DNA from: Catajapyx aquilonaris
Lineage: Eukaryota
Reading direction: 5' to 3'
NCBI GenBank assembly: GCA_000934665.2
Contig: JYFJ02000732.1
Location: forward strand, 62,001-111,508
Length of the DNA: 49,508 bases
Shown: piece by piece, positions 3,890-48,880 of the stretch
How positions within the stretch are numbered: position 1 is the stretch's first letter
How the letters are laid out: the number at the start of each line of letters is the position of its first letter
Notes under the pieces: model-generated
The model's database searches: none
Told to the model about the DNA's origin: nothing
The model's input: the letters and a program-made list of their open reading frames with translations, nothing else
Position numbers and translations under genes: made by a program

Positions 3890-4120
3890 ATAATTTGTGC
3901 ATTCCTGAGGGGCTGCCAAGGGGTCAACAGTAGCATCAGTGGCTGCAGGCAAGACGCACAGCGGCTCTTCATCTGGCGGTTCCTCCTTAACCATGGCCCG
4001 TACGGATGAAGGGCCACTAAATGTCGACAGAGCTTCCTCCTTGAGTGCCACTCGCCAAGTTTCCTCCGTCGTGATCGCCTCCTCTTCTACTTTGACTTCC
4101 CCTTGAAGCGTGGCTGACAT
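3890..4120 (-). CDS. First coding exon of gene 1: acidic psiKxE/W/DPL module
   Basis: MSATLQGEVKVEEEAITTEETWRVALKEE...VKEE...VDPLAAPQECTNY. Acceptor tttcag|ggccATG, phase-0 donor tat|gtaagt. Confidence 0.8.
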
Positions 4121-4260
4121 GGCCCTGAAATGGAAGCGCCGATGACAGTGCAACGTACGTGGATGTGTTTGTGGAGCGAGAACCCCGTTGAAACGAGGCT
4201 GGAACTCACCAGAAGGACTCGACCGCAACCGACGCCAACACTTCTTCTTCACGACTGATG

Positions 4261-4345
4261 GGCCGCCATCTTGGATCAATACAGCTGGGAACGCGGGCGC
4301 ATTCCCGTCGCTGGCCATCCGTTCCTTTGTCCGAACCGCGATGGC
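4261..4345 (-). promoter_or_regulatory. Family core promoter copy (gene 1)
   Basis: + strand GCCGCCATCTT, GGGCGCATTCCC, GTTCCTTTGTCC. Exon-1 donor GTGAGT at 4209-4204. Confidence 0.65.
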
Positions 4346-5243
4346 CTTAAACGCTATCGTCGTGGCAATCGCTGCTTCGGCTCCATGGACAATGTCCAGT
4401 TTGGGGATTTCTCCTAGCTGGGCAACCACAGAAATTATGAAGCTGTACGGGCCAAATGAAAATGCTTTTTATGAATCCTGCCATTCAAGTGTCCCACGAC
4501 TATACGTAAAGAAAACCACAAGAATAATAATAACGGACACCAAACAGTTCTATATATTATCGACACAGGTCTGCTCTCTTCGACAGTCAATTCAACAACT
4601 CCTCCATTCCAAAAAAAAAAACCCTACACACCAAATAAATTGGTCCTATAGCAACAGTTACCGTGACACAATCCACCAGACAACAATACCTGTTGGCAGA
4701 ACTGGTACACTACAAAAAGAATGGCCACCAGAACCCCCAAGAGGAAGACCACTGTTCGATCCCAGCCGGCCATAGGAGCAGATAACCACAACTCGTTCAG
4801 TGACGACTGAAAGTTACCTGTGTGTTGGCCAATGGAATTTCAAAGATTAATCATTAACGTAGGCGTGTAGACCCATCGTCTCTGGCAATGCCTGAAAATA
4901 CAGCTCTGGTGTTGCTCTCAGGTTTGCGATGGTATGGGAAGGCTAGGAGGGCTAGGAAAACAAGCATGCTTAGTTGGTGATGCATCAAAATTGTATCAGG
5001 ATACTTTAGTCTATGTTAGTAAGCCGGAAAAGCGACACGGTCTCTGAGGAAGAACAAGCATGTACCTTTTATACTTAATCCCATGTTCATTATACCAATC
5101 GCGGGCACCCTTTTCGGAGGACGCCCAATTTTCCATTTATTCTTCATTTCCAAATCGCGAGGTGATTGTAGTAGTTGTCCTATAAGAAAAATAACATTTC
5201 ATAAATATTACGTGCTTACACATTTTTGGTGCCTTTGACATAC

Positions 5244-5453
5244 CTCGGTATCATTCTGGTTACCCACTAAGGGTTAACCGCAGGCATCTGGTGACCACCA
5301 ATTTTTCCTCTGTTGTCTTCCACTTACTGTTAGTAGAACAAAGAGCCATTTCAACAGTGGGCAAATCAAGATCAAGGCAAGAGGACAATTCTTCCTTTGT
5401 CATCTTCCACATCTCCTGGCGATCCCTCTGGCGATCATCACGTCAAATGCCAT
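5244..5453 (-). pseudogene. Degenerate, frameshifted copy of the acidic-module exon
   Basis: cag|ATG start. Fragments EMWKMTKEELSSCL, EEKLVVT and NPLVGNQNDTE|gtatgt lie in more than one frame. Confidence 0.5.
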
Positions 5454-6631: not shown

Positions 6632-6902
6632 CTCACTGGTGCTGTCCTGAGTAACTGCTAAGGGATCTGGACCATCACCAGTGTCTTCCGGAATTGTGAA
6701 TACTAACTCTTCTTCATCTTCCGCTTCCATCTTGACCTCGTGTTTGTCCTCTTCTACAATAGTGCAGCCCGTATCACGTTTGGCCTTTTCCTTCTGCACC
6801 CATTTCCATGCCTCTTCCAGAGTTATCAATTGCTCTTCTTCTTCTTCCTCCTCCTCCTCCTCCTCCTCCTCCTCCTCGACTAAAGGTGGGATTGACTTGT
6901 CT
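6632..6902 (-). CDS. Internal acidic-module exon with poly-Glu, downstream of the SIX exon (gene 2)
   Basis: LITLEEAWKWVQKE...EVKMEAEDEEELVFTIP...PDPLAV. Phase-2 acceptor ttttccag matches the SIX exon donor; phase-0 donor gag|gtaagc. Confidence 0.75.
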
Positions 6903-7361: not shown

Positions 7362-7831
7362 CTTTGTGAGACTAGCGTAACGGTTCTGTCCATAGTTCTG
7401 TCCTTATTATGTCTATCAGGCTTGCTTCTCTGTCTCCTGTTCTTGAACCAGTTGGTGATTTGGAGGTTAGTGAGACCAGTGAGCACTGACAGCTCTTTCT
7501 TTTCCCTAAGAGATGGGTATGGCTTGATCCTATACCACTTCTTCAGGATGGCTCGGGACCTCTCCTTTAAGGAGTACAGCATCACTTCGCCGTCCCAGAT
7601 GGTGCGGGGCAGGGGGAACTTGCGCCTCACCCTGTACTTGTCCACTGCGCTCAGGGGACGGCCACGGAGACTTTCTACTTCCATGTAGTGGGCTTTGAGC
7701 CACAGAGACTGCAGCTTAGCATGGTTATGCGCTGAGAAGTGGTGATCCTCCAGCAGGCAATACAGCTCTGCAAAGTGCCCCTGGTGGAAGGCTTCCAGTG
7801 CTTTGTCCACCAGGATGCTCTCCTCCACCAC
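7362..7831 (-). CDS. Divergent Six1/2 (sine oculis)-like exon: truncated SIX domain plus K50 homeodomain (gene 2)
   Basis: [15 protein letters not shown]...[27 protein letters not shown]...[11 protein letters not shown]...TGLT...NWFKNRRQR. Phase-0 acceptor tttaag, phase-2 donor ag|gtatgc. Confidence 0.9.
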
Positions 7832-8471: not shown

Positions 8472-8937
8472 CTGAAATAAAAAAAATCACATAAGTATGT
8501 TTTCTTAAGATGGAAATTACGCAAATCACATGCCAGAAAAATTCCAAGATATTTTTTAAAAAGCCATCTAAAAATTCAGGAAAGGTTCTCAGGTTGTGCA
8601 GAGTTGTGCAAATGTGACTTAAAAAATGCCCAAACTGAGGGTTATCACCTTTTGTCACCATACCCCACAAGCGATGAAAAAAAGTCCCAGTATCTGCTAC
8701 AAATAATTGTACACACCAGTGGCCAATAAGTGAAATAAAATACACTAATAAAATTAGAGAAAATAACTACACACAACTACCAGATGAAGACAACATCACA
8801 CCTACAAAAGAAAATCCTTACTTCCATATACAGCTTGATTAGATTTTCATGTGTTGCGGCATCATTTTCTGCAGAAGGTACAAGGAATGCCATTGAAGGC
8901 TTCTAGAACAACCTTACTAACACCAAAAATTGAGGTA

Positions 8938-11011
8938 CAGTATAACTTCTATAAGTCGAATCTCCATGGGACCGGAAAAAAACCTTCGAGTTATAGAAGA
9001 TTCGAGTTAGAGAAGTTTGAAATTTTTAAAGCACATAACTCTATAAGGAAGCCTACCTTTATGTCCAGAGACGAAAGGTGTTCAAAACTTCTGAATAACA
9101 TACTGTCACTAATACACTACTAATGTTCCTCATTGCTTCGTCGTAAAAAAAAAAACTCCGTAACGGCCATTTATTGCTTAGTCTGCGATTGACTCTCACT
9201 CTGAATAAATGATTCAATAGTCACAATTGAATCGAACACTTCTCTTGGAACGTCGGATCGCGATTCCAGCCACACACGGAGACTTGACACTATTCTGTTA
9301 GCTTCTCTCACTGTCGGGGGCACTGTCTGTGGTTCAGGGTCATCGTCGGAGTCGTCATGTAAATCTTCGCCTTCAGGCTCTTTTTTCTGCGCCACTCTGC
9401 GAAGAATATCTTCTTCCATGGCGTGTGATGCAACTGTAACTCCACTGTCAATGTTGGCATACACATCAAACGTGACCTCGTCAGGTACGACCAAATAATC
9501 GCGCACTCGTTCCCAGGATTCGTCATTTTCGTAGCAACTATCTTCATTTTCTATCTGTTGATCACCTTCCCTAATGAAGCCAGCTTTATGGAAGCAGTTG
9601 ATTAGAGTCGATGTCTGGACTTCGTTCCATGCTGCTGCGATATCTCGGCAGCAATCCAAAAGGGAAATAGTGGGTGCACTGCTGGCACCTTCATCCAAAG
9701 CTTGTATGATCCGCTGAATTATTCTTCTTCGGTACTTGTGCTTCAGGTTCTTAATGATTCCCTGATCCAAGGGCTGCAGCTTGGACGTAGCATTCGGAGG
9801 TAAAAACACGACCTTGATGGCCTTCAACACTACTGACGTTACTTTTGGATGGGCAGGGCAATTGTCGACAAAAAGCAAAATTTGTCGCCTTTCAGACGCA
9901 AATTTTTCGTCGAGACTTACCAGCCACTCCTCGTAAATCTCCGAAGTTATCCATGCCTTCTTATTGGTTTTGTACGTCAAAGGCAGAGATTTAAAGTTCT
10001 TAAAGCAGCGCGGATTTTTCGCCTTGCCAATTAGAAGAAGCGGAAGTTTTTCGGTACCTGCCATGTTGGATCCCACCATGATGGTAACCCGCTCTTTGCT
10101 ATGCTTTCCACCGTAGCACAGGTCATCTTTGAAAGCCAATGTTTTGTCAGGAAGGCATTTAAAAAATAAACCCGTTTCACCAGCGTTGAAAATGTCACTG
10201 TCACTGTATCCACGCAATAAATCTGGTAACACTTGCGATCTCCATTCTTCGCAGTCACTCTGATTCACATCTGCACTTTCCCCACAAGCCTTTTTGAAGA
10301 CGATGTTATTTCTCGTTTTGAACTTGTCCAGCCACCCGACACTTGCTTGAAAATCGTTGTGCCCAAGTTGTTTGGCAAAGTTTTCAGCTTTTTCACGCAG
10401 AAGAGGGCCAGACAATCGAATGTTTTTCTTCCTGAGTGTCATCATCCATATCAATATTGCTTCTTCCACTTCGGGATATCTCACCTCTTTCATGCGCTTT
10501 CTTGATGACTCGCCTGTTGACTCCACTGCTTCTAGTATTGCTTCTCGGTTCTTCAAAATTGATGAGAGTGTGCTGGCAGGTATTCCGAATGCTGCAGCAA
10601 CATCCTTCTTTTTTCCGCTACCCCTCTCCACCTCCCGTATTAATTTGGCCTTGTCTTGCAGGCTCAGGGTCTTTAGCTTGCGCTTCGCCATCGACATCTA
10701 CTGACAGGCAAGAGCCCAGCCACTGTGGTGGAGAATACTCACTGAAATTTTGAACACAAAAGCTTCAACGACCAATATCTGCACCCAAACCAATGACGCA
10801 CATGGCATAACCATACCGTTTCGTTTAAGACGGCCAGGAAAGCAAGGATTACACGTGGCGAGTTACTCGGCGCAGTTGGGGGTTATGCTTAAATTCGAGT
10901 TAGGGAAGTTTATTTCCTATTCTTTTACATTGTGACCAACCAAGCTCATCATTTTCTTCGACTTATAGGGAACTTCCACTTAGGGAAGTTCGACTTATAG
11001 AAGTTTTACTG
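8938..11011 (-). mobile_element. Full-length Tigger/pogo DNA transposon in an intron of gene 2
   Basis: 23-bp TIRs CAGTA[T/A]AACTTCTATAAGTCGAA with 1 mismatch. TA at 8936-8937 and 11012-11013. Subterminal TTCGA[C/G]TTA repeats at both ends. Confidence 0.92.
9171..10697 (-). CDS. Tigger/pogo (TIGD4/TIGD6-like) transposase, 508 aa: CENP-B HTHs plus DDE_1 domain, first catalytic Asp replaced by Gly
   Basis: FGIPASTLSSIL; ASVGWLDKFKTRN; IFNAGETGLFF (canonical NADETGL); LFVDNCPAH; LQPLDQGII. Confidence 0.92.
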   Translation of the reverse strand: MSMAKRKLKTLSLQDKAKLIREVERGSGKKKDVAAAFGIPASTLSSILKNREAILEAVESTGESSRKRMKEVRYPEVEEAILIWMMTLRKKNIRLSGPLLREKAENFAKQLGHNDFQASVGWLDKFKTRNNIVFKKACGESADVNQSDCEEWRSQVLPDLLRGYSDSDIFNAGETGLFFKCLPDKTLAFKDDLCYGGKHSKERVTIMVGSNMAGTEKLPLLLIGKAKNPRCFKNFKSLPLTYKTNKKAWITSEIYEEWLVSLDEKFASERRQILLFVDNCPAHPKVTSVVLKAIKVVFLPPNATSKLQPLDQGIIKNLKHKYRRRIIQRIIQALDEGASSAPTISLLDCCRDIAAAWNEVQTSTLINCFHKAGFIREGDQQIENEDSCYENDESWERVRDYLVVPDEVTFDVYANIDSGVTVASHAMEEDILRRVAQKKEPEGEDLHDDSDDDPEPQTVPPTVREANRIVSSLRVWLESRSDVPREVFDSIVTIESFIQSESQSQTKQ

Positions 11012-11176
11012 TATATTCTAATAGCCACACCAAGCCATAACCACATTATACAACATGCTAATCTGAATGCAACATGATTGGTGAACATGCTCGGAGGGAA
11101 GAATAATCCAAGGCACATATCACACTACACTATACATTTTCAAATATACTTAGCTCACAACTGGGTTGACCATTTA

Positions 11177-11754: not shown

Positions 11755-11931
11755 CTTACTGGTGGTGGCATCGTGTGCAACGTCTGAGACTTCCGAACTC
11801 CCTGATGGTATGCCAACCAGTTCTTCCTCCGCTGCCTCTCTCTTCATCGCCAACTTCCAGTTCATCTCCTCAATAGTAATTAGCTCCTCATCCTCCTCCA
11901 CCTCCTCCTCCTTCTTGATCCTCAGATCCAT
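11755..11931 (-). CDS. First coding exon of gene 2: short acidic module
   Basis: MDLRIKKEEEVEEDEELITIEEMNWKLAMKRE...EEELVGIP. Acceptor tttttccag at 11939, phase-0 donor aag|gtgcgt. Confidence 0.75.
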
Positions 11932-12070: not shown

Positions 12071-12240
12071 GGAGACGCCATCTTAGGTTACAGCAACGGG
12101 CGCGTTCCCATCCCCGCCACAAAGGAAAGCCAGACCAAACTTGTTCCTTCGTCCAGACATGAACCACCAGTAGCCGCTCTTTACAACCACCTGTTACAGT
12201 AGCCGCTACTAGTTGTTACTCGCTATCCGCTATTTGCTAT
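12071..12240 (-). promoter_or_regulatory. Family core promoter copy (gene 2)
   Basis: GACGCCATCTT, GGGCGCGTTCCC, GTTCCTTCGTCC, repeated TAGCCGCT/CGCTA. Confidence 0.7.
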
Positions 12241-12341: not shown

Positions 12342-14249
12342 TTACAGGCGTACAATGGGTACTTTCGGGAGAATCAGTACTTGTCTCTCTAAAGCGTCTA
12401 CTCTGGCCGCCAACTGCCTGGCATCTCTCTCCCTCTGCTCCTCCAGTCGTAGGCGCTTCATCTCCACCTCCAGCCTCTTCTCTTCCATGTGAAAGCGGCC
12501 CTTCTCCAACTGCAGCCTCTGCTCTTCCGTACGAAGGCGGCCTCTCTCCACCTCCAGCCTCTCCCTCTCCAGCACTACCAACAGCTGGGGGCCGTAGTCA
12601 GTATTTGAAGCCCTTTGATTTGTTAGGAGGAGGCTCTGCTGCAACTTATTCACTGAGGAGGCGAGAGGGAATATGTCACCAAGATTACCCATCAGTGCAA
12701 ACAGTTGTTTCTTACCTGCAGCAAAAGATGCTTCTGGAGATGGAGTGGACACTGACTGGGCACCACAGATGGCAGCTTCCCCATGACCACTGGTGGTAGC
12801 TTCCACTTCTTCTTCTTCTTCTTCTTCTTCTGAAGTAACATCTAGTGTCACTTCAGGCACAACTGTTGCATGGGCAGTCTGTGACATAGGCCAGCGTGCC
12901 GGATTCTCCCTGGCTCGATCCACGGCTTCCTGTGCGGTTGTGTCACGCCACTCCGCTCTGGCTCCTTCTGAAGACTCCCTTCTGATTAGCTGGAGGACCT
13001 TCTTCTCCAAATTGGTTAGCTTCGGTACGGGAGGTGCTCTCTCGGCGCCAAGTTTTTGCAGCATTACGACATTGGCCTTCAGCTTGCACTGCAAAATTCA
13101 AACAATTAGTTGAATAATATCCTGTCTCCTGACTGAGTAATATCATTTGCATATACAATTCCTTTAAAATGTGATCTCCCCCTAACAACCTGCGTACCTC
13201 TCTGCGCAGGTACTTCCATTTTTTCCTGGCCTCCTCCCCAGTCCGGTCATTGATTTCAATGGCATTCACAACTTTGGCCACTTCCTCCCATGCGGCCTTC
13301 CTTTCCTGATGGGGATTTCGTACTTCAAAATCCCACGTCCCTTCCCTCAGGTTCTTCCTGGTCTCTAGCTGCCGGACCAGAACCTCCACCTCACGCTCCG
13401 TCCAATTTGGACGCCGAATCTTCTTTGCTGGACATTTCTCCTCCACTATTTGGAACCTTCCCCGAACCAAAATTGCAGTTAAATAAAAATAATGAGGAGC
13501 AGATGCGACAGTAATAGTTTACCTAACATACCAATCAGAATACACATTCACAATACCCATTACTTCAATTTCCATTTTGAAAGCAAATAATGCAAATTCT
13601 CTTCTTGTTAATGAGGAAAAACATGCAGGCATGTCATCACTAATTGCCTTCATTGAATTCAACAAGATTACTTAAAATAACTGCTGGTATTTCTACTGGA
13701 CTTCTGTAATGGGTTTCCAAACATATACCTTTTCTGTCCCTCCTGACTAATCCCAGCATGTTGTACTTGGCCCTCCTGCATACTTTCAACAAGATCTTCC
13801 TCTTGTGGCACCTGGAAACATAAATTCAGTATCAGTAGATGAAAGTAATAATACACCAGCTTACAATGGATTGTTCCATCGATTCTGCTTATGCCTGCAA
13901 CCAGTTTCAGGTAATCATAAGCAACATTGTAGCAACATGTCCTTATTTTAATCCATGTTGTCACGTTCAGTGATTTTGGCCATTGCGTCTATAGTTTCAG
14001 ACGTACCATACTTGCGTCTCCGCCAGCAATTGACAAGGGGTCGTCCTCATCATCTGCATGCGGAATGGCTCCCACCCACTCCTCCTCCTCCAACTTCACC
14101 TCGTCCGCATTAACGGCCATGCTAATGACGGTCGAGTAATCAACGGCGCAGTATGGCGCCTGTCCCTCCTTCATTGCCAGCTCCCAAGCACCTTCATCAG
14201 TCACCAAATCATCGTATGCCCTTTTGTTGGCAGCCACTTCCATCGACAT
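12342..14249 (-). CDS. Gene 3: acidic module + Myb/SANT-like DNA-binding domain + coiled coil (MSANTD4/NAIF1-like)
   Basis: Phase-compatible exons 14249-14007, 13811-13729, 13456-13198, 13088-12342. RRPNWTEREVEVL...AAWEEVAKVVNA...RTGEEARKKWKYLRR; C-terminal ERERLEVE...EEKRLEVE heptads. Confidence 0.85.
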
Positions 14250-15151: not shown

Positions 15152-16150
15152 CTAGGAGGGTAGTAACTTCCCTGCTGTATGCAATGCCACATGTCTTTTT
15201 AAATGACCTCTCTGACCAAACCTTTTCTGACACACTGGACAAGCATGTGGCTTCACTCCTGTGTGCAGCATTGCGTGTGACTTTAAATGAGACACTTGCG
15301 TAAACCTTTTCATGCAAATCTGGCAAGACAAAGGCTTTTCTCCTGTGTGAGTCAACTCGTGTCTCTTCAGTTCAGAGGTCCCACTAAACCGTCTCTGACA
15401 TACACTACATACAAAGGGCTTCTCACCCGTGTGAATCACCATGTGCCTCTCCACATGAGCTTCCCTACTGAATGATTTACCACAACGCTGGCAGGTATGA
15501 AGCTTTTCCCCAGTGTGTGTAGCCATGTGTGATTTCAAATGAGCAGATCTAGAGAATTTTTTGGGGCACATCTGGCAGGAAAATGGCTTCTCTTCTGAAT
15601 GGCTTACCATATGTCGTTTCAAGTTAAACAGTTGACTAAACACTTTCTTACACAATTGGCAAACACTTGACTTCCGTCCATCACCTGTCTTCCTTTGCAC
15701 TTGCACCTCTGTTTTTCCACTAACATCATCACCTGCCTCTTGTGCTACCTGCAAGAGGGAATAACATTCTAAATGACTGGTTATTTATGATGAGATGCAT
15801 ATCACTGCATTACTTCACATCGGAAAATTCAACCTTGGCTCACGAATTATTATTAGAGCTGAAAATGGTACAGTCTCTTATTATGATGAGTTTTACCCAT
15901 GTGGTGCACTCTACTGACATACCTCACTGGTGTTCCCATAAGGGTTGCCTAGAGGGTCCTCCGCATCCTCCGTAGGCAAAGTGAACAACATCTCCTCCTC
16001 CTCCTCCACTTTAATGCCAGTAGTTTCCTTAATAACAACATAATGGTGTGTCGGACACTCTTCCTTCACTTCAGACTTCCACATCATCTCGCCAGTTGCC
16101 TCTTCTTCATCCTCCTTCATCTCCTCCTTGACGATCAGTGACAAAGACAT
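15152..16150 (-). CDS. Gene 4: acidic module + 6 C2H2 zinc fingers
   Basis: Exons 16150-15923 and 15748-15152, phase-0 intron (gag|gtatgt ... ttgcag|), TGEKP linkers. Confidence 0.9.
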
Positions 16151-17262: not shown

Positions 17263-18758
17263 CTATCTCGCATTATGAATCTTCCTGTGCTTATTCAAGC
17301 TCCAAGGCGCACCAAACTTTTTATGGCATATCTGACAATCATAATTCTTTTCTCCTGTGTGGGTGACCATGTGCTTTTTCAAGGATGCTGCCTCAAGAAA
17401 AGTTCTCTCGCACAACTGGCAGGAAAATCGCTTTATGCCCGTGTGAGTTTGCATGTGCCTTTTCAAACTCGATTCCACTGCAAATGCTTTCTGGCATGTT
17501 GCGCATGTATGAGGCTTCTCACCCGTGTGACACGCAATATGTCTTTTCAATAAATTTGGAGTTATAAACTGTTTCGAACAAAATTGGCAGACATGTCCCT
17601 TCTCTCCCGTGTGAAAGGAAATGTGTCTTTCCAAATGAGATATCCTCGCAAACCTTTTCGCACAAAATGGGCACACATGTGGCTTTTCACCTGTATGAAT
17701 CATCATATGTAACCTCAAATAATTTGACCTCTTATACTTTTTATGGCAAATTTGGCATGCATGTACTCTCTGATGATCTTGGGCCTGGGTCGTCTTTTCC
17801 AACCTTCCAACAGCAGGTTTTGCTTGCACCACCTGAAATGTATGCGAAATCAGTGATTTAGCAGATGCCAAACCATACACACCTATTGTGCCTAAGACCA
17901 AATCTAGCCTGCTTACGTACATAGTGTGCGACTAAATTCGAAAGCATAGCTGAGCAGAACGTTTCTGAATTATTCAACCACACTTCCAAGATGTCTAAGG
18001 AGTATACCATTTCCTGTCATTTTTATGCTCAATAATTCCTCTGTTGCTCTGTACACAAGTCAACATGCCAATATAAAAAATTGTGCTTAGATTTTCATTG
18101 CTGCACCAAATATTATGATTCAATTTTTTCATAACCTCTAAATGCCACAATTCCCAAGTAACTACATAATAACAAGCTTGTTGTGCAAAAATTATTGGTA
18201 ATCTCTACAGACTCTTATCGAGTTGATGCACATGTTTCACTATGTGGAATAGTACTACGTATGTATTAACCGTAAAAGTAATGTCGCACTGTTATGCTAT
18301 GTGATGGCGTCCATGACTTGTTGTTTAGCATGGGTTGTGGATTCCGGAATGTTGCCAAATTAACACTCGTAACTCGGCAGCGCCCACACTAAACAAGTCG
18401 CGGACGCCATCACCAGTGCGACATTACTTTTGCGGTTAATAGTACAAGATTTACAAGAATTATGGCAAGCAGGATGGGCATAATTTTTAGTACTCATGAT
18501 CAGGCCCATATGTACCTCATTGTCGTCCTCCTGAGCATCAGATAAGGGGTCGCTCAAATCCTGGATGGCCTCTGGCATGTTGACTGCCAACTCTTCATCT
18601 TCTGCCTTCACCTCATCATCCAAGGAATCTTCCTCGGAGGTTGATGGCCCTTCAAAGCACGGCGACGAGGGGGTCTCCTCCTTCACCACGCACTTCCACA
18701 TCTCATCTGCAGTCATCAAGGCCTCCTCCTCCTCCTCCACCTTGACATGCACTGACAT
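17263..18758 (-). CDS. Gene 5: acidic module + 6 C2H2 zinc fingers
   Basis: Exons 18758-18516 and 17832-17263, phase-0 intron (gag|gtacat ... tttcag|). Confidence 0.88.
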
Positions 18759-23190: not shown

Positions 23191-23360
23191 AAGACGCCAT
23201 CTTGGATGCTGCTGCTGCTTGTGGGGTGCGTTCCCACCCCCGCGCTGAAAGGGGACGCTCCCGTTCCCTAGACAAAGGAACGCCTTGCAGGCCATTAACC
23301 GCTACTTGAAAATAGCGGCTACCCACGATCGCTGCTATTTTCTTGTAGTTCTCGCCTATC
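23191..23360 (-). promoter_or_regulatory. Family core promoter copy (gene 6)
   Basis: GACGCCATCTT, GGGTGCGTTCCC, CCGTTCCCT, AACCGCTAC, TCGCTGCTA. Exon-1 donor GTGAGT at 23086-23081. Confidence 0.7.
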
Positions 23361-31158: not shown

Positions 31159-31276
31159 GATTCCGGACTGCCAATTGCTTGCTGATCATGCGGACACTAA
31201 TTGCGAATTATTCTGTCCCGCCCACAAGGCACAAACGGGCGATGTTTCAGGAGAAATCAGCTCAAGAAGTCAACGG

Positions 31277-35627: not shown

Positions 35628-36032
35628 TTATTCTCCCTTCCCTTCTCCCAAGGCGTACCGTAGTCCATATCTTCCTGTTTTCGTACAATCTTGGGCCTGG
35701 GTTCCGTTCTTTCCACTCCCACAATCTGCTCTCTCCCGCACCATCTGAAATATGCATTGCATTACATCATGAGTTAGCTGCCTGATTGCTTTCCACCAAC
35801 GATGCCATACCCTGCTGGTCCCTTCAGTACGACAGTCGTCCAGTGGGTCGTCCGCATCCTCAGCAGCATCTGGTGTTGCCACAACCAGCTCTTCTTCCAC
35901 CGGCTCCAGCTTCACCTGGGAGACTTCCCCAGCGCAGTTCCTCGCATGCTCTTCCATACTCATCAGCAACTCCTCCGCAGTTGTTGCTCCTGCTTCTTCC
36001 GCCTCCATCTTGACAACCACGTTCCCCGACAT
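35628..36032 (-). pseudogene. Truncated duplicate of the 5' part of gene 7: acidic exon and start of exon 2, no fingers
   Basis: Exon 36032-35811 closely matches 31158-30925. The exon starting at 35744 loses similarity near 35683 and stops at 35628. Confidence 0.8.
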
Positions 36033-36153
36033 GATTCGGCTGAAGTGCCAATTGCTTGCTGATCATGCGGACACTAATTGCGAATTATTCTGTCCCGCAC
36101 ACAAGGCACAAACGGGCGATGTTTCAGGAGAAATCAGCTCAAGAAGTCAACTG

Positions 36154-36300
36154 GCGGCCATCTTGGATGAATATTATTGGCGGGGTGCGTTCCCACCGCC
36201 GCAAACGCAGTCCGGTCCTTGTCCAAAGCTGGACGTACTTAACCGCTACTTCAACGTGCGGATCAGATCGCTGCTACTCTCATTAGCCGTTATTAGATAT
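36154..36300 (-). promoter_or_regulatory. Family core promoter copy (duplicate of the gene 7 promoter)
   Basis: Closely matches 31277-31430. Confidence 0.7.
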
Positions 36301-37429
36301 CCTTTGCCCAATGTGCACCTTCCCATGTACTTTCTGGTTTAATTAGGCTTGCATGAGCGGTAATTTTGAGTACATTAAAAACAGGGGGGGAAATCAAGTA
36401 TTAAAATCGCGCTTTTCAAGAAGTGACACGGTCTGTTCTAGGGAGGACGGGCACTCCAACACACAACATTTCATTTCCTTAAAAACATGAAGCACATAAA
36501 CAAAGCAACCTCACAAACTCTTTTATTTTTAGACAAATTATCGCCTTCACAATAATACATTATTTTAGTAATTGATCATTTATAATGTAATAATACGACA
36601 TATTTGGTCACTCCCCGCCCCCATCTCATTCCATTCCTCATCTTCGTCAAGTCCTCATGGACTGATTTTCTTGTATATTGACCTCATTTTTTATTGTTAC
36701 AATTTGGGAGTTGTACGGTATATACCAGAATATAATGTAAAAACTTCAAATAATATCCGTGGACTGAATTAGTGACAAGTTTATGCTGTCACAAAGTCAT
36801 CCAGCAAAACTAAGAAAGTTACCTAACACCCTCGTATCTCCTACAAACATTGTTCATTATCGCATCATCTTATATCATTCTTTAGCTCATGTCTGTATAT
36901 TCAGAAATACAGTATGTACCATATATTTGATGGCATATAAGACGCAGGACGATTTTTTGAGTCACTTTCTGGGGAGAAAAGTGCGTCTTTTGTGCTGTGA
37001 AGTACTGTGTCAGAGTTACGGTGACCCGACCATAAAGGCCCTGCGCCAACGCTGTGAACTGTATGAAGTACTGTAATTGTTTTACTCTCTTTGCACCTGT
37101 GCCGGTCGTTACTAGGGATAGTCCTCGAACACAGAGCCAACACACCTTGCACTTTGCAAACTTGGAATATGGGCAGGAGTATGACCGCCAACAATGATTG
37201 AGGAATGAGACATGCATGAGCCTTCCAAGCTGGCCTCTAGGTGGCATCTGCCCACCTACTGGGACCAGTTTTAGTCAGGTAGCTAATAATATTGTCGCGA
37301 GATATTAGAAAAACTTATTCCTCACACAGTCACACTTACTGTATTTCAACTGTATGAATTTGCATGTCAGTTTTCATTAGAGTTGAATCCTAAGTTTTTT
37401 TCTGTCTCACCTCACAAGTAAATGGGTTT

Positions 37430-38902
37430 TCATCCTGTATGAATTTGCATGTGAGTTTTCAACGTACTTGAATTACGGAATTTTTTCTGGCAGACCTCAC
37501 AAGTAAACGGTTTGTCTCCTGTATGAATTCGCATGTGAACTTTCAAGTTACTTGACAGACAAAAACTTTTCTGGCACACGTCACATGAAAATGGTTTGTC
37601 TCCTGTATGGATTAGCAGGTGACTTTTCAAACTATGTGAATAACGAAATTTTTTCTGGCACACCTCACAAGTGAATGGTTTTTCTCCCGTATGAATTAGC
37701 ATGTGACTTTTCAACTTATTGGAGTCACGAAATATTTTCTGGCAGCTCTCACAAGTAAATGGTTTTTGTCCCGTATGAATTTGCATGTGCTTTTTCAATG
37801 TACCTGAATCGCTAAATTTTTTCTGGCACACATCACAGGTAAATGGTTTTTCTCCGGTATGACTTCGGATGTGAATTTTCAACAAATTTGAATCACGAAA
37901 TTTTTTCTGGCACACATCACAGGTAAATGGTTTTTCTCCTGTATGATTTCGCATGTGAATTTTCAATCCATTTGTATCACGGAATGTTTTCTGGCACACC
38001 TCACAAATAAATGGCCTCTCTCCTGTATGAATTATCAGGTGATTTTTCAAACTATGTGAATAGCGAAAACTTTTCTGGCACACCTCACAGATGAATGGTT
38101 TTTCTCCCGTATGAATGAGCATGTGAATTTTCAGCTTATTGGACCCACGAAATATTTTCTGGCAGACTTCACAAGCAACTGGTTGTTCTGTATGGATTAG
38201 CATGTGCCTTTTGAAACTACTTGCATAACCAAATTGTATCTGGCACACCTCACAAGTGAATGGTTTTTCTCCTGTATGAATTCGCATGTGCCTTTTGAAA
38301 CTACCTGAAGCGCTAAATTGTTTCTGGCACACCTCACAAGTAAATGGCCTATCTACCATCGTATGACACTGCATGTGAGTTTTCAAATCGCTTGACTTGC
38401 GGAAAATTTCCTGGCAAATATGACAGGAATTTCTTCCCCTATGAAGTATCATGTGAATCTCCAATTCATGCAGAGAGCCGAATAATTGCTGGCATATTCC
38501 GCACTCATATGGGCAGCTCCTTCCCTTCTCGTCATTTTCTCCGGCGTCTTCATCGGTCTCTTGAAAGATCTATAATGTGAATCAGTTTAATGCAAATTTA
38601 CATTGCACTTTCAGCAGATGACATACCCCACTATTCCTTCCTGAACCAACAGCCAAAGGGTCATCTTCCTCGTCATCCTCCCTAGACGTGGCCACCACCA
38701 TCTCCTCCTCCTCCTCCTCCTCCAGTGGCTCCTTCTTGACCTCACGATGAGTGTCTTCCATGGGAGTAGAGTCGTTGTCCACCCATTCCGGGGTCTCCTC
38801 CTCTTTCATATTGGACTCCCAGCTGGTCTCTTCCACTGTGACCATCCCACCTCCTTCCTCCTCCTCCTTCACTTCCTCCTTTATCCTCAGGAGCAAAGAC
38901 AT
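37430..38902 (-). CDS. Gene 9: acidic module + 13 C2H2 zinc fingers
   Basis: Exons 38902-38627 and 38569-37430, 57-nt phase-0 intron. Confidence 0.9.
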
Positions 38903-40752: not shown

Positions 40753-41901
40753 TCATGTATGAATTCGTGTGTGCCTTTTCAAATTATGTGAATCACCAAA
40801 TTTTTTCTGGCACACCTCACAAGTGAATGATTTTTCACCAGTATGAATGCGCATGTGCTTTTTCAAATTATGTGAATCACCAAATTTTTTCTGGCAGACC
40901 TCACAAGTAAATGGTTTTTCGCCTGTATGATTTCGCATGTGAATTTTCAACTCAGTGGAATCACGAAATGTTTTCTGGCACACATCACAAATAATTGGCC
41001 TCTCTCCAGTATGAATTAGCAGGTGCCTTCTCAAACAATGTGAACGACTAAATTTTTTCTTGCACACCTCACAAGTGAATGGTTTTTCTCCTGTGTGAAT
41101 TTGCATATGAGTTTTTAAATTACTGGCATTACCAAACTTTTTCTGGCACACCTCACACTGAAACAGTCTCTCTCCTGTATGAATCAGCATGTGCCTTTTC
41201 AAAACCCTTGATTGACGAAAAATTTTCTGGCACACCGCACATTTAAATGGCCTATCTTCCATATGACATTGCATGTGAGTTTTCAAATCGCTTGACTTGC
41301 GAAAAATATCCTGGCAAATACGGCAGGCATTTTTCCCCCTATGAATTAACACGTGAATTTCCAATTTACGCAGCAGACCAAATAATTGCTGGCATATTCT
41401 GCACTCGTATGGGCTTCTTCCAGAGCAGATGTTCCTCCCCTCCCCTTCCTTTTCTCCTCCATCTTCACCGGTCTCTTGAAAGATCTAAAATGCGAATCAG
41501 ATAATTGCAAATTTACATTGCACTTTCAGCAGACGACATACCCCACTAGTCCTTCCAGAACCTCCAGCCAAAGGGTCATCTTCCTCTTCAACCTCCCCTG
41601 ACATGTCCACAACCATCTCCTCCTCCGCTTCCTCCTTCTTGATCTCGAGGGGAGTGTCTTCCATGAGAGTAGAGCCCCCATCAAAGCAAGAAGGGGTCTC
41701 CTCCTTCAAGGGAATCTGCCAGGTCTCCTCCACTGTGATGTCCTCTTCTTCTTCCTTCACTTCTTCTTTCTTTATAAGAGTAGAGTCCCCATCGAAGCAG
41801 GACGGGGTCTCCTCCTTCAACCGCAGCCTCCAAGTCTCCTCATCCACTGTGACGTCCTCCTCATCCTCCTCCTCCTTCTTTATCCTCACTGGCTGTGACA
41901 T
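40753..41901 (-). CDS. Gene 10: internally duplicated acidic module + 8 C2H2 zinc fingers
   Basis: Exons 41901-41542 and 41484-40753, 57-nt phase-0 intron. The stop falls in a linker (HT*DKP). Confidence 0.88.
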
Positions 41902-42183: not shown

Positions 42184-42330
42184 GCGGCCATCTTTTTTAT
42201 GCAAATGAGGGTGCGTTCCTGTCGCCGCACCACAGTGGAAGGACGGGCTTATGCGCTATCACTCTACTCCAGAATCACCGCTATCTCTGCAGAACCGCTA
42301 CTTCCTCCAACAACGCTATTCGCAAATTGT
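42184..42330 (-). promoter_or_regulatory. Family core promoter copy with octamer (gene 10)
   Basis: GCGGCCATCTT, ATGCAAAT at 42199-42206, GGGTGCGTTCC, AACCGCTAC. Confidence 0.7.
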
Positions 42331-42866: not shown

Positions 42867-43265
42867 TCACTCGGTTGGATGAATTCGCTTGTGCCGTTTC
42901 AAATGACTTGAACTGAGGAATTTCTCCTGGCACACCTCACAATGAAACGGCCTGTCTCCCGTATGAATTTGCCCATGCTGTTTCAAACTTCTAGCATTAC
43001 ACAGTTTTTTCTTGCACACCCCACACTGAAATTGACTCTCTCTGGTGTGAATTTGCATGTGAGATTTCAACTCATGGGCATAACGAAAAATGTTCTTGCA
43101 CACCTCACAAATGAATGGTTCCTCTCCTGTGTGACTTCGCATGTTAGATTTCAAACTGGTTAAATTTCGAAATTCTTTCTGGCAAATACGGCAGTAATGT
43201 TTTTCACTATGAATAATAATTAACATGTGAATTTCCAATTTATGCAGAGAACCAAATACTGCTAC
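42867..43265 (-). pseudogene. Orphan 5'-truncated C2H2 array related to exon 2 of genes 9/10
   Basis: Starts mid-finger (FGSLHKLEIHM). One finger has His replaced by Asn (LKSNMRSH). No in-frame acceptor or own acidic exon found. Confidence 0.65.
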
Positions 43266-43486
43266 TCTCCCATTGGATCAAGCTGGAACAGAATTTGGGC
43301 TCATTTTCGACCCTAATAAATTTTGCTAATTTAGGTGGTGCACTTGTGCGGGTAACATACCACATTGAATGGCATGACATGCAGGTTGTGAAGATATCAC
43401 AAGTGTGAAAGTAGGTCAAACATGTCTCTAAATAAAACACCATAAACAGGTGAAAAATATTACTTTTTCAAAATGCATTTGACATT

Positions 43487-43489
<3 letters not shown>

Positions 43490-43548
<59 letters not shown>

Positions 43549-44691: not shown

Positions 44692-47600
44692 CTAGCAGAC
44701 CTCACTAGTGAATGGTTTTTCTCCTGTATGGATTTGCTTGTGCCTTCTTAAATTACTTGAATTACGAAATTCTTTCTGGCAAACCTCACAAGTAAAGGGT
44801 TTTTCTCCTGTATGGATTTGCTTGTGAACTTTCAACCTACTGGAATTACGAAATTTTTTCTGGCACACCTCACAAGTAAAGAGTTTTTCTCCTGTATGGA
44901 TTTGCTTGTGCCCTCTTAAATTACTTGAATTACGAAATTCTTTCTGGCAAACCTCACATGTAAAGGGTTTTTCTCCTGTATGAATACGCAAGTGAACTTT
45001 CAACCTACTTGAATTACGAAACTTTTTCTGGCACACCTCACAAGTGAATGGTTTTTCTCCTGTGTGACTCTGCATGTGAGTCTTCAACTTATTTGATTCA
45101 GGAAATTTTTTGTGGCACACCTCACAAGTGAATGGTTTTACTCCTGTATGGATTCGCATGTGCCTTTTTAAATGACTTGACCTGCGAAAATTTTTCTGGC
45201 ATATGCTGCACTCAAATGGCTTTTTTATATCACATAATCCTCTACTCATTTCCTCTCGGATCCCACTCTCTTCAACTCCGTCTTCACTCCTCACTTGCAG
45301 AACCTGGAATGTAAATTATAGGACATCAATTTCTACACGCTTTCCACCTCCTGTTGGTCATCTGGAAGGCATCCCTTGGTATGAAAGCTCAAGTGGCAGT
45401 CTCACAGATCAACAGACTGTACAATCACATATTTTAGTTAGTACATGAAATGTGGGAATGACAGAAAATAATAATAACGTCTCTGTTGGAAGGACAAAGG
45501 ACATGTGGGGCTCTTGCTGTAAAACTGGGGCCACATGGATTTTGTCTGAAACCAGATCAGTTGATAGGCCCTCACCCTAATTGCTCTGAAGGCCAAAAAT
45601 GATATATGATACCGTTTGTTCATTAGAGGCGCTCCCAATGGGCTCATTTTCATAATGTTGTAGAATGTAGTGTGTCTGATGTTGAGTCGAATGGGCTGTG
45701 AGCTGATTCTCTGTGATAAACCATTTGGAAGTTGTTGTTGTATCGCACTTGCAGTCCCTGTACAAGGTACGATGTTGAACTCAGTTAAGCATCTAGTGCT
45801 GCATGGCGTTTGGTGCACAATAGTCCATGAGTTCACGGAAAGAGAAAATGAATGATTTTTTTTGTTCCCCCGGCATGTAATTTACGAGTGAGCCATTGCC
45901 TTACCCCAGGGCCTGAGTTTCTTTTTCCCCTTTTCCAGTTCCGGAAAAGGGGAAAAAGAACTCAGGCCCTGGGGTAATAAGGCAATGGCTCAAACATTCC
46001 GTCGTCAAGAGGTTAAAAAACTGGAATTCTTTTTGCTTTACAAACGTCCACGGAGTTGGCAGTTTGGCACCACTGCACTGATATTAAAACAACATCCCGA
46101 CCGTGGTAGTCCAGTGTTCGGCTTGTTTACGGCTTCCATTATTTTCCCCCTCCTCTGTTATTGTGAGGTCACCGTGAATAAGACGTGGGTAGAAGGGTAG
46201 GTGGAAGGGGCAAAGGGGTCTTCACGGGAGAGGAGAATGGTGGGTCCTCGTTGACGTCCAGCAAGCGACTGTGGCGTTCTCCCACCCACTGCGCATGCTC
46301 GGAACGGGGGCCAATCGGAGGCGCCGTGGTAACAGTGCGTCATGGATACGATGCAGCAACAATGGACGGGGGCCAATAGGAGGAGGCGGCGGCGGCAACA
46401 ATACGGGGGCGGACCAATCAGAGGGCTCGGCCCCCGTCCGCAAGGATTTTAATATTATAGATGGCTTTTTCTGTTGAGCTATGGTTGATTATTATCCATT
46501 GTTGTCCCTTAATAACTATGGTGACGACACTGTCAGCAGAGAAGTTAAATGAGGCTTCTGGGCTCTCCACCTGTCATCCGAGCAGCTTTGTTCCTTCTCA
46601 GGGCTCCGTGGCAGAAGTGCCTGCTGCTTGCCTGCTACTGTTCGCCCTGGGGTGGCCCCAGGAAGGGGATGGCAGGAGTCGGAATGAGCCCTTTGGCCAC
46701 GCCCCTTTTTGCGCCAATTTGGGTGACTTTTAAACCCACGATAATTAATGGAGGAGTGACATTTTGAGGTGTGATTGAGCTATTCATGTACCAATTTTCC
46801 AAATCCACACCAAGGCTAGGGTCCCATTCATAGCAAACGGGCTGATCCATACTATCTTACAGAGAGAGCAATCGCTTACAGCAAGAGCTAATAACTGAGA
46901 GCCTCCGAGTGCCCTATCCCTGCCGTATTGCATGGTTCCCGAACCTCTCCGCGGAACTGGCGACTCCCCAGACGGGCACGGCCAAATGTAGGCAGCTGAT
47001 TTACACGGGAGGGACCATATCCCGTCTGTCGTCATCACGGTAGTCCCGCCCGACCCCTCCAACCACTCCACCACGGTGATTGAGGCAGCCCCCCCTCCTT
47101 GGAAGAAGGGCCTGCCCATTCGGCCAGTGGCCAATCAGAGACCAGTTTCTTCAGAGGCCCAGAATGGGACACATGGGCTCCTCTTCAGACTAGAAGGTCC
47201 GTGGGGGGCGGGGGGAGGTCAAAGTTGGGGATGAGATTCCCAAAATAGACTGGATCGCCTGGGGGGCACAAACCAGCCGGGCAAGTCAATGGTTTGGGCT
47301 TGGTCATGGCAGCTAGGAGGGGGTCAGATATCATGCTAGATCTACTTTTGACATGCCTGGTATGAATCAGGTATGAAGATATAGGTTTTCGACACCTTAG
47401 AATTCATATTTGCTGTCAAAAGTGCAAAAAGGTGCGTCTTTAAAAAAGTAGCCGGATTAGTTTAGAAAGGCCTCTACCCCCACCTGATATAAGCCGGAGC
47501 CCCTTATTCCTAATCTACCCTCCTTGGGGTCTCTGAGACCCTTATTCCTAATCTACCCTCCTTGGGCGTATCAGGTGGGGGTAGTGGCCTTTCTAAACTA

Positions 47601-48683
47601 ATCCGGCAACTTTTTTAAAGACACACCTTTTTGCACGTTTGACAGCAAATATGAATTCTAAGGTGTCGAAAACCTATATCTTCATACCTGATTCATACCA
47701 GGCATGTCAAAAGTAGATCTAGCATGATAACTTCAACAAGTTTTCTTAATATACACACGGGTTTCCGTGGGCCTGTTTGTGACATGCCTGGTACGAATCG
47801 AGTATGAAAAGATAGGTTTTCGACACCTTAGAATTGATATTTGCCGTCAAAAATGCAAAAAGGTGCGTCCTTAAAAAAGTTTGCGGATTAAGGTTCACTT
47901 CCCTACCTGTGATAAGCCCGAGGAGGATAGATTAGGGAGGGTGTGACTTATCTTACCCCATTCTGGGCAGGGGGGTCAAAGACCAGGAGCCCTGGGGCCT
48001 TTCTTCGCACCCACCCGGACCAAAGGTGATAAGTGAGGAACAGAAAGAGTTGACCCCCTGAAGAAGCCACGCCTCTGTAGGAGGGACAAAGGTTCCCTTC
48101 TTGGTTCGGTCTAGTCGCGCCAGAGGGAAACTAATCTCAACACTTCCCTGGTCCATCAGAGGTTCAGTCACGGCAAAGGACTTGTCACATGCTCTCAGTT
48201 ATTAGCTCTTGCTTACAGTTGAAATAGGCAAACATCATGCAGATGCTGCAAGGGGAACAATTTACGTACAGTGGTTGAATACGTGTAGCAGGAGTGTGGA
48301 TATTTCTATAATATCTTTCCATGCCCAGGTGTTTGATTAGGAATGATGATTTGATGTGGCTTTGGTGTAAAATTATACTGCAAATTCAGAAGATTGCATA
48401 CCCTACTAGTCCTTCCAGAACCTCCTGCCAACGGGTCGTCTTCCTCATCACCCTCTCTGGGCATGTCCACCACCATCTCCTCCTCCACCTCCTCCTCCTC
48501 TGCTTCTTCCTTCTTGATCTCAAGGAGAGTGTCTTCTATGAGAGTGGAGCCACCATCAAAGGAACAAGGGGTCTCCTCCTTCACCCTTAGCCTCCAACTC
48601 TCCTCGTCCACTGTGATGTCCTCCTCATCTTCCTCCTCCTCCTTCACTTCCCCTACCTTCTTCATCCTCAGGATGAAAGACAT
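44692..48683 (-). CDS. Gene 11: acidic module + 6 C2H2 zinc fingers, with a 3.1-kb insertion-rich intron
   Basis: Exons 48683-48402 and 45303-44692, phase 0 (agg|gtatgc ... ttccag|). Fingers 3-4 and 5-6 are a tandem duplication. Confidence 0.82.
45890..45991. repeat. Near-perfect hairpin of about 100 nt
   Basis: GAGCCATTGCCTTACCCCAGGGCCTGAG...TTTTCC, 6-nt loop, then GGAAAA...CTCAGGCCCTGGGGTAATAAGGCAATGGCTC. Confidence 0.9.
46882..48211. mobile_element. Non-autonomous TIR element, P-superfamily-like
   Basis: Perfect 21-bp TIRs CAAGAGCTAATAACTGAGAGC at 46882-46902 and 48191-48211. 7-bp TSD CTTACAG at 46875-46881 and 48212-48218. Confidence 0.82.
47329..47729. repeat. About 160-bp inverted repeat inside the P-like element
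   Basis: Arms 47329-47489 and 47569-47729. The spacer has a duplicated CCCTTATTCCTAATCTACCCTCCTTGGG. A third diverged arm copy lies at about 47780-47890. Confidence 0.9.
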
Positions 48684-48725
48684 GGTCCTGCAAAACACAA
48701 TCGAAACGGAATAAAATAAATCTCA

Positions 48726-48880
48726 GGCGGCCATCTTCCTCTTCTTTTCTCTTTCTTTTTTATGCAAATGAGGGTGCGTTCCTGTCGCCACACCAGTGGG
48801 TGGAAGGACGGGCTTATGCGCTATTAATGCAGATCGCTGCTACTGCTAAAGCACTGCGACTTTCTCCAATAACGCTATTT
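48726..48880 (-). promoter_or_regulatory. Family core promoter copy with octamer (gene 11)
   Basis: GCGGCCATCTT, ATGCAAAT at 48762-48769, GGGTGCGTTCC, TCGCTGCTAC, AACGCTATT. Confidence 0.7.

Follow-up and report, generated by a model that had tools for sequence, protein, structure and literature searches.

A common promoter and acidic first coding exon precede predicted DNA-binding exons in a gene cluster of Catajapyx aquilonaris

The window analysed here is a stretch of 49,508 nucleotides from Catajapyx aquilonaris (contig JYFJ02000732.1 of assembly GCA_000934665.2, positions 62,001 to 111,508). It is eukaryotic DNA whose genes share a homologous 5′ cassette, that is, a promoter followed by a short acidic coding exon, and stand head-to-tail on the minus strand throughout. 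Thirteen acidic exons are open when the minus strand is translated, with starts at 4120, 6902, 11931, 14249, 16150, 18758, 22868, 31158, 35239, 36032, 38902, 41901, and 48683, and each exon and its gene are named here by this start. No tRNA or Rfam match was found across the window. An earlier note on this DNA had listed the thirteen exons and described a shared cassette of promoter and acidic exon before DNA-binding domains. All thirteen are real, an open acidic frame being present at each start, and the observation is confirmed and extended by the common promoter. As for the note's interpretation, a distinct and constrained module without a named family, its promoter, and the gene structure hold up; a fusion to a SAMD3-like domain, the reading of 6902 as a first exon, and that of 36032 as a gene do not.

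The locus and the shared 5′ cassette

The acidic module is encoded by one exon and ranges in length from 59 to 134 amino acid residues (aa). In 12 of the 13 exons the ATG lies 3–9 nucleotides (nt) past an AG, mostly with a pyrimidine tract before it, and 12 of the 13 end in a phase-0 GT donor. The first of these features, described earlier as usual in the set, is lacking at 6902, where the coordinate is the acceptor itself and no ATG follows the AG (the nearest, at 6916, is upstream of the acceptor). The second is lacking at 22868, which has lost its donor and carries a frameshift. In the alignments, the T of a T-x-EE-x-W motif is invariant (13/13), and its W is present in 12/13. The DPL is kept in 11/13, being missing from 11931 and 22868, and [IV]-K-x-E recurs at three alignment positions, so that the motifs described in the earlier note (ψ-K-x-E, T-x-[DE]E-x-W, a hydrophobic patch, and DPL) are borne out. 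The alignment also shows an E-E-E-[LM]-V-x2-[IM]-P patch and D-x-D-D-P-L. No conserved Cys column is seen in either alignment of the module copies.

Four copies, 41901, 48683, 35239, and 38902, are young, with pairwise identities of 65–75% in the alignment. The remaining copies are diverged, in general at 32–42% identity, and the cassettes 4120, 11931, and 14249 are 32–41% identical to the young copies. A profile built from the four young copies placed the other nine exons (E = 4e-10 to 0.035) above all other members of the window's six-frame set of 1275 open reading frames (ORFs), and a profile built from eight diverged copies recovered the other five at E = 3e-11 to 5e-24. Against the same 1275 ORFs, a full-module profile matched these exons alone, plus a remnant ORF at 5263–5442 (E = 0.015). 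Since the cross-validated profiles recover the copies left out of them, the homology of the exons goes beyond composition.

It might be argued that the exon is a low-complexity acidic leader, conserved merely through recent duplication, with motifs that have no specific function. Glu abounds in the exons, with as many as 16 E in a row, and HMMER bias scores reach 30 bits; four of the exons are the young paralogues just named, and acidic, K-x-E-rich N-termini are common in other poly-zinc-finger (poly-ZF) proteins. Nevertheless, the copies at 32–42% identity are recovered by the cross-validated profiles after bias correction. The ratio of nonsynonymous to synonymous divergence (dN/dS, by the Nei-Gojobori method) is 0.21–0.47 in 8/8 young paralogue pairs despite the synonymous divergence between them (dS 0.13–1.1). 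Order and spacing are preserved for the T, the W, the ψ-K-x-E sites, the E-E-E-[LM]-V patch, and the DPL, and in 11/11 DPL-bearing copies the donor follows the DPL at a set distance, exactly 9 codons in nine copies and 10 codons in two (31158 and 36032). There are 38 ψ-K-x-[ED] sites in the 13 exons, a count taken from paralogous copies that are not independent events, as compared with 5.6 ± 2.3 (maximum 14) in 1000 composition-preserving shuffles; 38 of the 65 module lysines lie in this context. We therefore find the low-complexity account very improbable. The profiles, the ψ-K-x-[ED] excess, and the dN/dS values agree with the earlier claim of a distinct module constrained beyond low complexity.

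The homology includes the promoter. In a DNA self-comparison, upstream similarity is confined to the young copies and one 641-bp duplicate. Alignment of three young upstream regions yields a conserved block of about 150 bp, the elements of which recur before the diverged copies. The sequence GGAAYGCRCCC has 13 matches with at most one mismatch, versus 1.58 expected in the window. Eleven are on the minus strand and precede, by 99–366 nt, all of the 13 exons but 6902 and 35239; the two plus-strand matches, with one mismatch each, lie elsewhere in the window. The sequence AAGATGGC has nine exact matches versus 1.93 expected, all on the minus strand and 54–335 nt upstream of nine exons. Further blocks, ATAGCGnTTAAG and AAGGAACGG, recur in the same order, and an octamer-like block is confined to three young promoters. 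The portable promoter proposed in the earlier note is thus found as homologous blocks before the exons. We suggest that the core promoter would extend for about 100 bp and comprise four conserved blocks, ATAGCGnTTAAG, AAGGAACGG, GGGAACGCRCCC, and CCAAGATGGCG[GT]C, the last of which matches the YY1/TISU consensus.

In two sources, the AAGATGGCGGC element is given as the YY1 consensus (bioRxiv 10.1101/2024.07.09.602649) and as the TISU element (PMC9658832). By sequence, the consensus is present here as an exact 12-mer once, at 4262–4273, with one or two changes before eight further cassettes, and as exact AAGATGGC in nine copies. In TISU genes the ATG within the element is the start codon, as stated in PMC9658832, whereas here the element's ATG opens only a tiny upstream frame, which in the young copies, for example, reaches a stop after three codons. 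This upstream-frame ATG (e.g., at 39040–39050 and 48727–48737 on the minus strand) may serve as a regulatory upstream ORF. The element is followed by GTGAGT donors in 4120, 16150, and 22868 and by GTGAGG donors in 41901, and the presence of donors downstream of the element in four copies points to a non-coding exon 1. In order, the cassette would comprise the core promoter, a short non-coding exon 1 with a short intron after it (in several copies), and the first coding exon, ending in phase 0. The coordinates are collected in Table 1.

Two kinds of repeats lie near the promoters. A 103-bp inverted repeat pair (91% identity; 19046–19148 and 19234–19336) is directly upstream of the 18758 promoter core block and may be a small inserted element. 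Dispersed repeats of 81–82% identity (32101–32248 with 39685–39822, and 39245–39443 with 49186–49393) are found 0.3–1 kb upstream of several cassettes.

Table 1. Coordinates of cassettes, partner exons, and other features of the window (splice junctions are predicted).
Positions	Strand	Feature	Details
3..514	-	Integrase core (rve) exon	Continues past window end
1009..1404	-	Exon upstream of integrase core	No Pfam match
1818..2124	-	BED zinc-finger exon	
3004..3318	-	THAP exon	Phase-0 acceptor 3318/3315, phase-0 donor
3890..4120	-	Acidic module exon	77 aa; donor GTAAGT
4262..4305	-	Promoter blocks of 4120 gene	Includes exact 12-mer consensus; GTGAGT donor 52 nt on
5263..5453	-	Module remnant	Decayed, frameshifted
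6632..6902	-	Acidic module copy	No ATG, no promoter
7362..7831	-	SIX-type exon	SIX1_SD profile positions 39-113 and homeodomain; phase-0 acceptor, phase-2 donor 7361
8936..11013	-	Tigger/pogo transposon	Within predicted 3.9-kb 11931-SIX interval
11755..11931	-	Short acidic module exon	59 aa; without DPL; phase-0 donor GTGCGT
12074..12108	-	Promoter blocks of 11931 gene	
12345..13456	-	Myb_DNA-bind_5 exon	Acceptor 13456 in frame with linker; then C-terminal ORF
13729..13811	-	Candidate linker exon	83 nt; enters phase 0, exits phase 2
14007..14249	-	Acidic module exon	81 aa
14477..14487	-	Promoter core block of 14249 gene	YY1-like block not found there
15155..15748	-	C2H2 exon	6 fingers; phase-0 acceptor 15748
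15923..16150	-	Acidic module exon	76 aa
16451..16477	-	Promoter blocks of 16150 gene	Then GTGAGT donor of non-coding exon 1
17266..17832	-	C2H2 exon	6 fingers; phase-0 acceptor 17832
18516..18758	-	Acidic module exon	81 aa
19035..19045	-	Promoter core block of 18758 gene	1 mismatch
19511..22522	-	Run of abutting ORFs in shifting frames	Earlier called SAMD3-like
22633..22868	-	Decayed acidic exon	
23193..23234	-	Promoter blocks of decayed 22868 cassette	
30150..30863	-	C2H2 exon (31158 gene)	7 fingers; 61-nt intron
30925..31158	-	Acidic module exon	78 aa
31277..31316	-	Promoter blocks of 31158 gene	
32469..33401	-	C2H2 exon	10 fingers; phase-0 acceptor 33401
34838..35239	-	Acidic module exon	134 aa; internal duplication; no own promoter block found
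35683..36305	-	Partial duplicate	88% identity to 30802-31434
37433..38569	-	C2H2 exon (38902 gene)	13 fingers; 57-nt intron
38627..38902	-	Acidic module exon	92 aa
39040..39098	-	Promoter blocks of 38902 gene	
40756..41484	-	C2H2 exon (41901 gene)	8 fingers; 57-nt intron; phase-0 acceptor
41542..41901	-	Acidic module exon	120 aa; T-x-EE-x-W unit duplicated internally
42184..42219	-	Promoter blocks of 41901 gene	
42870..43277	-	C2H2 ORF	3 fingers; no own cassette; fragment or further exon
44695..45303	-	C2H2 exon (48683 gene)	6 fingers; phase-0 acceptor 45303; intron about 3.1 kb
48402..48683	-	Acidic module exon	94 aa; ATG 48683; phase-0 donor GTATGC
48727..48782	-	Promoter blocks of 48683 gene	GGAACGCACCC, octamer-like ATTTGCAT, YY1/TISU-like AAGATGGCCGC

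Predicted partners of the acidic exon

A Pfam search combined with the promoter motif scan places exactly one DNA-binding unit after each intact cassette and before the next promoter block. The cluster has the layout of a family with a shared effector module, as follows: the genes are clustered paralogues, the module has its own exon, and this exon is, by prediction, in frame with a DNA-binding exon. All of the cassette junctions described here are predictions from the sequence alone.

Pfam identifies eight C2H2 arrays on the minus strand, and in-frame splice paths link seven cassettes to C2H2 arrays. In 7/7 of these ZF genes a phase-0 acceptor is found just upstream of the array, in accord with the earlier placement of C2H2 arrays downstream of the cassettes. 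The cassette-to-array introns would be 57, 57, 61, 174, 683, 1436, and 3098 nt long, and the arrays behind the cassettes hold 6–13 fingers. Among 59 fingers of the cluster, entropy is highest at finger positions −1, 3, 6, and 2, a variability at contact positions that resembles that of families diversifying their targets. The ZF array shares about 35–55% identity with proteins of arthropods, fish, amphibians, and mammals alike. The segment from 46000 to 48000, within the long predicted intron of the 48683 gene, is the sole stretch of the window with about 51% G+C and contains local direct and inverted repeats at 47346–47936. Between two ZF units, a trinucleotide repeat at 43431–43700 (minus strand) reads in one frame as about 25 consecutive Leu.

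Three further cassettes have in-frame predicted paths to a THAP, BED, and integrase combination, to a truncated SIX homeodomain, and to a Myb/SANT-like domain. Of the non-ZF domains named in the earlier note, Pfam recovers THAP, BED, rve, SIX1_SD with a homeodomain, and Myb_DNA-bind_5; the SAMD3-like domain drops out. The ORFs with Pfam matches span 2968–3456 (THAP), 1801–2136 (BED), 7286–7903 (SIX1_SD and homeodomain), and 12946–13518 (Myb_DNA-bind_5), and the integrase core match at 3–593 is below the Pfam gathering score since the window end cuts the domain.

The chain of exons that begins at 4120 is in frame, with consensus signals at each step. That is, the acidic exon joins the THAP exon (3890|3318), the donor at 3003 leads to the BED acceptor at 2124, 1817 leads to 1404, and 1008 leads to the rve acceptor at 514. 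An in-frame chain split by introns in this way argues for an intron-bearing gene rather than a transposon copy. The exon just upstream of the integrase core may encode the zinc-binding region at the integrase N-terminus. A 101-bp direct repeat of 89% identity (2487–2587 and 3730–3830) has its copies in two successive introns of this predicted gene.

The 11931 exon is predicted to be in phase 0 with the acceptor at 7831, before the SIX ORF. The SIX-type gene fragment (7286–7903, minus strand) has an intact homeodomain and a SIX domain without its first 38 profile positions, and these positions were not found among 72 flanking minus-strand ORFs. The acceptor of the 6902 copy needs 2 nt and is in frame with the phase-2 SIX donor at 7361, for which the chance odds are about 1 in 3. 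Thus, 6902, once counted as a first-exon copy and having neither an ATG after its acceptor nor a promoter block, may from its phase be a 3′ exon of the 11931–SIX gene. The Tigger/pogo element in the 11931–SIX interval ends in 30-nt inverted repeats (8936–8965 and 10984–11013) that are 90% complementary. It contains an intact 508-aa transposase ORF (9174–10697) with CENP-B_N, HTH_Tnp_Tc5, and DDE_1 domains, as expected of a member of this group, and it is an insertion, not a fused domain. With a complete and uninterrupted transposase, it looks recently active. In the third case, the 14249 exon reaches the Myb frame through a predicted 83-nt exon (13811–13729) and the acceptor at 13456, all in frame.

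These apparent fusions might be coincidental. That is, transposon-derived ORFs and a SIX fragment may have landed in a ZF gene cluster, with the adjoining acidic exons orphaned or the units using their own starts. THAP, BED, rve, and Myb_DNA-bind_5 are domain types typical of transposons, and the cluster does take up insertions and fragments, as seen in the intact Tigger element within the 11931–SIX interval, an orphan duplicate, the decayed copies 22868 and 5453, and a ZF fragment without a cassette. The THAP exon, moreover, has internal Met codons, so independent translation is possible. Yet the 4120, 11931, and 14249 cassettes keep their ATG, open frame, phase-0 donor, and promoter blocks in spite of their low identity to the young copies, whereas unused copies decay. 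Introns with consensus signals divide their downstream units, which continue the frame of the cassette; no Met precedes the domain in the Myb ORF; and the only promoter block before the non-ZF units is that of the cassette itself. On balance we judge coincidence unlikely, though it deserves real weight, and the predicted frames make fusions to three non-ZF binders plausible.

Some copies have plainly decayed or lost their partners. In 22868 there is a frameshift between "ERLV" and "IPDAAD", YPL stands in place of the DPL, and the donor reads ATA instead of the canonical GTA. The ORFs that follow, at 19511–22522, look from their shifting frames like a broken long ORF, in which no SAM domain or other family was found by Pfam at E ≤ 1 and the ESM Atlas gave no usable match. 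The proposed SAMD3-like fusion is not supported on either side of its junction. The decayed copy proposed at 5453 is weakly supported, being frameshifted and with its ORF at 5263–5442 scoring E = 0.015–0.026. The 36032 copy, earlier taken as one of the set of genes, lies in the 641-bp stretch that duplicates the 31158 gene at its 5′ end, from the promoter through exon 1, the acidic exon (35811–36032), and the intron to the opening bases of the ZF exon, with no finger array. As a gene it is an orphan. This partial duplicate (35683–36305) is direct evidence for copying of the cassette as a whole. It adjoins, just upstream, the 35239 exon, which lacks a promoter block of its own, and it is tempting to speculate that the duplicate now drives the 35239 gene. 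New combinations would probably arise in this manner, when the 5′ part of a gene is duplicated locally, with 35683–36305 as a caught example, and unused copies such as 22868 and 5453 would decay. In mid-cluster and with no cassette, an intronless ORF of 692 aa (26383–28458, minus strand), possibly a divergent gene of ionotropic-receptor type, has only a Lig_chan match below threshold (E = 1.6e-6; 28.4 bits, where the cut-off is 30.8), and a search for relatives at E ≤ 1e-5 found none.

Putative function of the module

The module could not be assigned to a named domain, in keeping with the earlier note. When all 13 exons were compared with Pfam, no family matched at E ≤ 1, nor did any match the 11 exon ORFs at E ≤ 0.01, and the PDB gave one chance-level match (E = 0.62). 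An 84-position module profile built from the exons had 0 matches at E ≤ 0.001 among 1.84 billion protein representatives, fish and tetrapod proteins included. A word-seeded (phmmer-type) search of longer proteins for the module found none, and none of the 120 best homologues of the ZF array carries it (best E 0.012); one of these homologues, the cyprinid protein P0095, bears a FiNZ-type stretch. There were no self-matches in these searches, so the proteins of the source species are probably absent from the libraries, and the lack of relatives is weak evidence of novelty. The nearest ESM Atlas clusters are chordate and of no named family (score 0.93, with a low recognition of 1575), and a KRAB cluster is at rank 7 with a score of 0.79, which is a lead only. 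In the literature, a text search, in which the motif is not searchable by sequence, found no described equivalent of the cassette. The cassette is real and constrained and, to all appearances, undescribed, with the logic of a ZF-protein effector.

In the AlphaFold2 model of the module, the pLDDT is 60.5, a confidence low enough to make a call of disorder weak, the pTM is 0.17, and the sole helix, residues 17–24, is around the Trp. From this model, the module looks like a disordered region with short linear motifs rather than a folded box like KRAB or ZAD. The ψ-K-x-E sites followed by acidic residues are the densest feature of the module and the best conserved. They match the SUMO-acceptor consensus in its extended, negatively charged form, and they constitute an array, with ψ-K-x-E at conserved positions, three of them recurrent. 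The acid-flanked hydrophobic patch presumably resembles a SUMO-interacting motif. Among 111 unrelated poly-ZF proteins, one of which is the FiNZ-bearing cyprinid protein P0095, ψ-K-x-[ED] is enriched 3.4-fold in the N-terminal region (300 versus 88 expected), a pattern that fits a general SUMO-based logic of such N-termini.

The module would be the common effector arm of the cluster's proteins. Its parts are proposed to be the three ψ-K-x-E sites, a short helix at T-x-EE-x-W, the acid-flanked hydrophobic patch followed by a Pro, and a D-D-P-L nine residues before the donor. SUMO attached to the ψ-K-x-E sites, possibly with the help of a putatively SUMO-interacting hydrophobic patch, would recruit repressive chromatin factors. 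SUMO-dependent recruitment of SetDB1-type silencing has been reported in Drosophila (bioRxiv 10.1101/533091; PMC10672805). From its motifs, we tentatively favour a SUMO-dependent repressor arm as the function of the module.

The main functional rival is that the module is an acidic transcriptional activation domain, the ψ-K-x-E sites of which only dampen it. Activation domains look acidic, with Trp or hydrophobic patches, and each exon encodes 10–36 Glu plus Asp, a Trp that the model places in a short helix, and hydrophobic patches within acidic runs. Nevertheless, the layout here, of clustered tandem poly-ZF genes with hypervariable contact residues, is that of known repressor families as portrayed in PMC10547256, although layout alone does not discriminate between the two. 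An activation domain is in our opinion the less likely function, and rather unlikely overall, but it is a serious contender.

Taking the locus as a whole, we consider it moderately probable that a shared 5′ cassette, made up of promoter and acidic first coding exon, stands before DNA-binding exons as an effector arm. A number of points weigh against this proposal. The junctions are predicted; the pyrimidine tract at the acceptor of the Myb exon is weak; and the THAP exon could be translated from its own Met codons. Four of 14 copies (22868, 5453, 36032, and 6902) are defective or orphaned, and the motif counts share paralogous ancestry. The YY1-like element of 48683 is only 54 nt from the ATG, and 31158 and 36032 have no clear exon-1 donor; judging from these sequences, the leader may be unspliced in all three, so that the acceptor before the ATG would go unused. 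As to function, the disorder call is weak, SUMO consensus sites are common across poly-ZF N-termini and so are not peculiar to the module, and an acidic region with Trp and hydrophobic residues also suits an activation domain.

The locus offers a compact module with mutable motifs, namely three SUMO-type lysines, one Trp, and a DPL. It also offers a co-inherited promoter and, caught in the act, a partial duplication from which the redeployment of the cassette can be read. If the SIX fusion is expressed, a fragment of a developmental homeobox gene has been wired to an effector of ZF-protein type.

Comparison with known N-terminal effectors

Large, fast-evolving ZF families each lean on an N-terminal effector peculiar to their lineage, namely KRAB in tetrapods, ZAD in insects, and FiNZ in carp-like fish. 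How such effectors originate, spread, and act outside tetrapods is largely an open question. We propose, by analogy, that the module is probably another lineage-specific effector module, probably SUMO-dependent, with a role analogous to those of KRAB, ZAD, and FiNZ and homologous to none of them.

ZAD is a zinc-binding, Cys-based domain. No Pfam match to it (PF07776) was found in the 13 exons, and the module alignments, as noted, have no conserved Cys column. As described in PMC7913770, ZAD is a folded, homodimerising domain; like the module, it is a lineage-expanded N-terminal module of C2H2 proteins. SCAN (PF02023) and BTB likewise had no Pfam match in the 13 exons.

FiNZ, as described in PMC10547256, is a short Glu-rich N-terminal sequence of a large, clustered cyprinid gene family, in which it has an exon to itself, ahead of the one exon for the ZF array. 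It is 28 aa long, restricted to cyprinid fish, and without similarity to known domains, and its mechanism is stated there as unknown. The same layout, a single acidic exon upstream of one ZF-array exon, is predicted for 7/7 of the ZF genes here, and P0095, like the module, has three ψ-K-x-E sites, in its case within 30 residues. The module differs in its length of 59–134 aa, its T-x-EE-x-W and DPL, its non-ZF partners, and its shared promoter. A direct relationship to FiNZ was rejected, as follows. A profile-profile comparison with P0095, the one FiNZ representative compared, gave a probability of 0.9% with the alignment outside the FiNZ stretch, and HMMER gave E = 7.

The module might still be a diverged member of a described family, FiNZ or a KRAB-like box. 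The shared FiNZ gene layout, the ψ-K-x-E sites of P0095, and the chordate and KRAB clusters of the ESM Atlas are all in line with such a descent. Set against these are the failed P0095 comparison, the absence of any Pfam KRAB match in the 13 exons at E ≤ 1, and the 84-position profile with no match at E ≤ 0.001 in a library that includes fish and tetrapod proteins. Descent from either family seems to us most improbable, and we return to the proposal of an analogous module.

KRAB also offers a parallel in organization. Like the module, it is an N-terminal effector exon common to clustered poly-ZF genes with hypervariable contact residues. Fusions of KRAB or SCAN to transposon-derived domains, KRBA2 and SCAND3, as given in PMC3575427, resemble the predicted joining of the module to an integrase-type domain. 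If the THAP-BED-integrase, Myb/SANT, and SIX fusions are expressed, they would parallel these mammalian genes. The Pfam KRAB family (PF01352) itself has no match in the 13 exons at E ≤ 1, and KRAB is a folded box, whereas the module is predicted to be mostly disordered. According to PMC10547256, KRAB acts through TRIM28. Our fullest proposal, which we advance with more reserve than assurance, is that an undescribed disordered module, with three SUMO-acceptor sites, a Trp helix, a patch resembling a SUMO-interacting motif, and a DPL, moves together with a YY1/TISU-type promoter and has been placed by local partial duplication before C2H2 arrays, transposon-type binders, and a truncated SIX protein. 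It would be an independent route to targeted repressors, in which silencers are recruited directly via SUMO, without the TRIM28-like adaptor on which KRAB depends.

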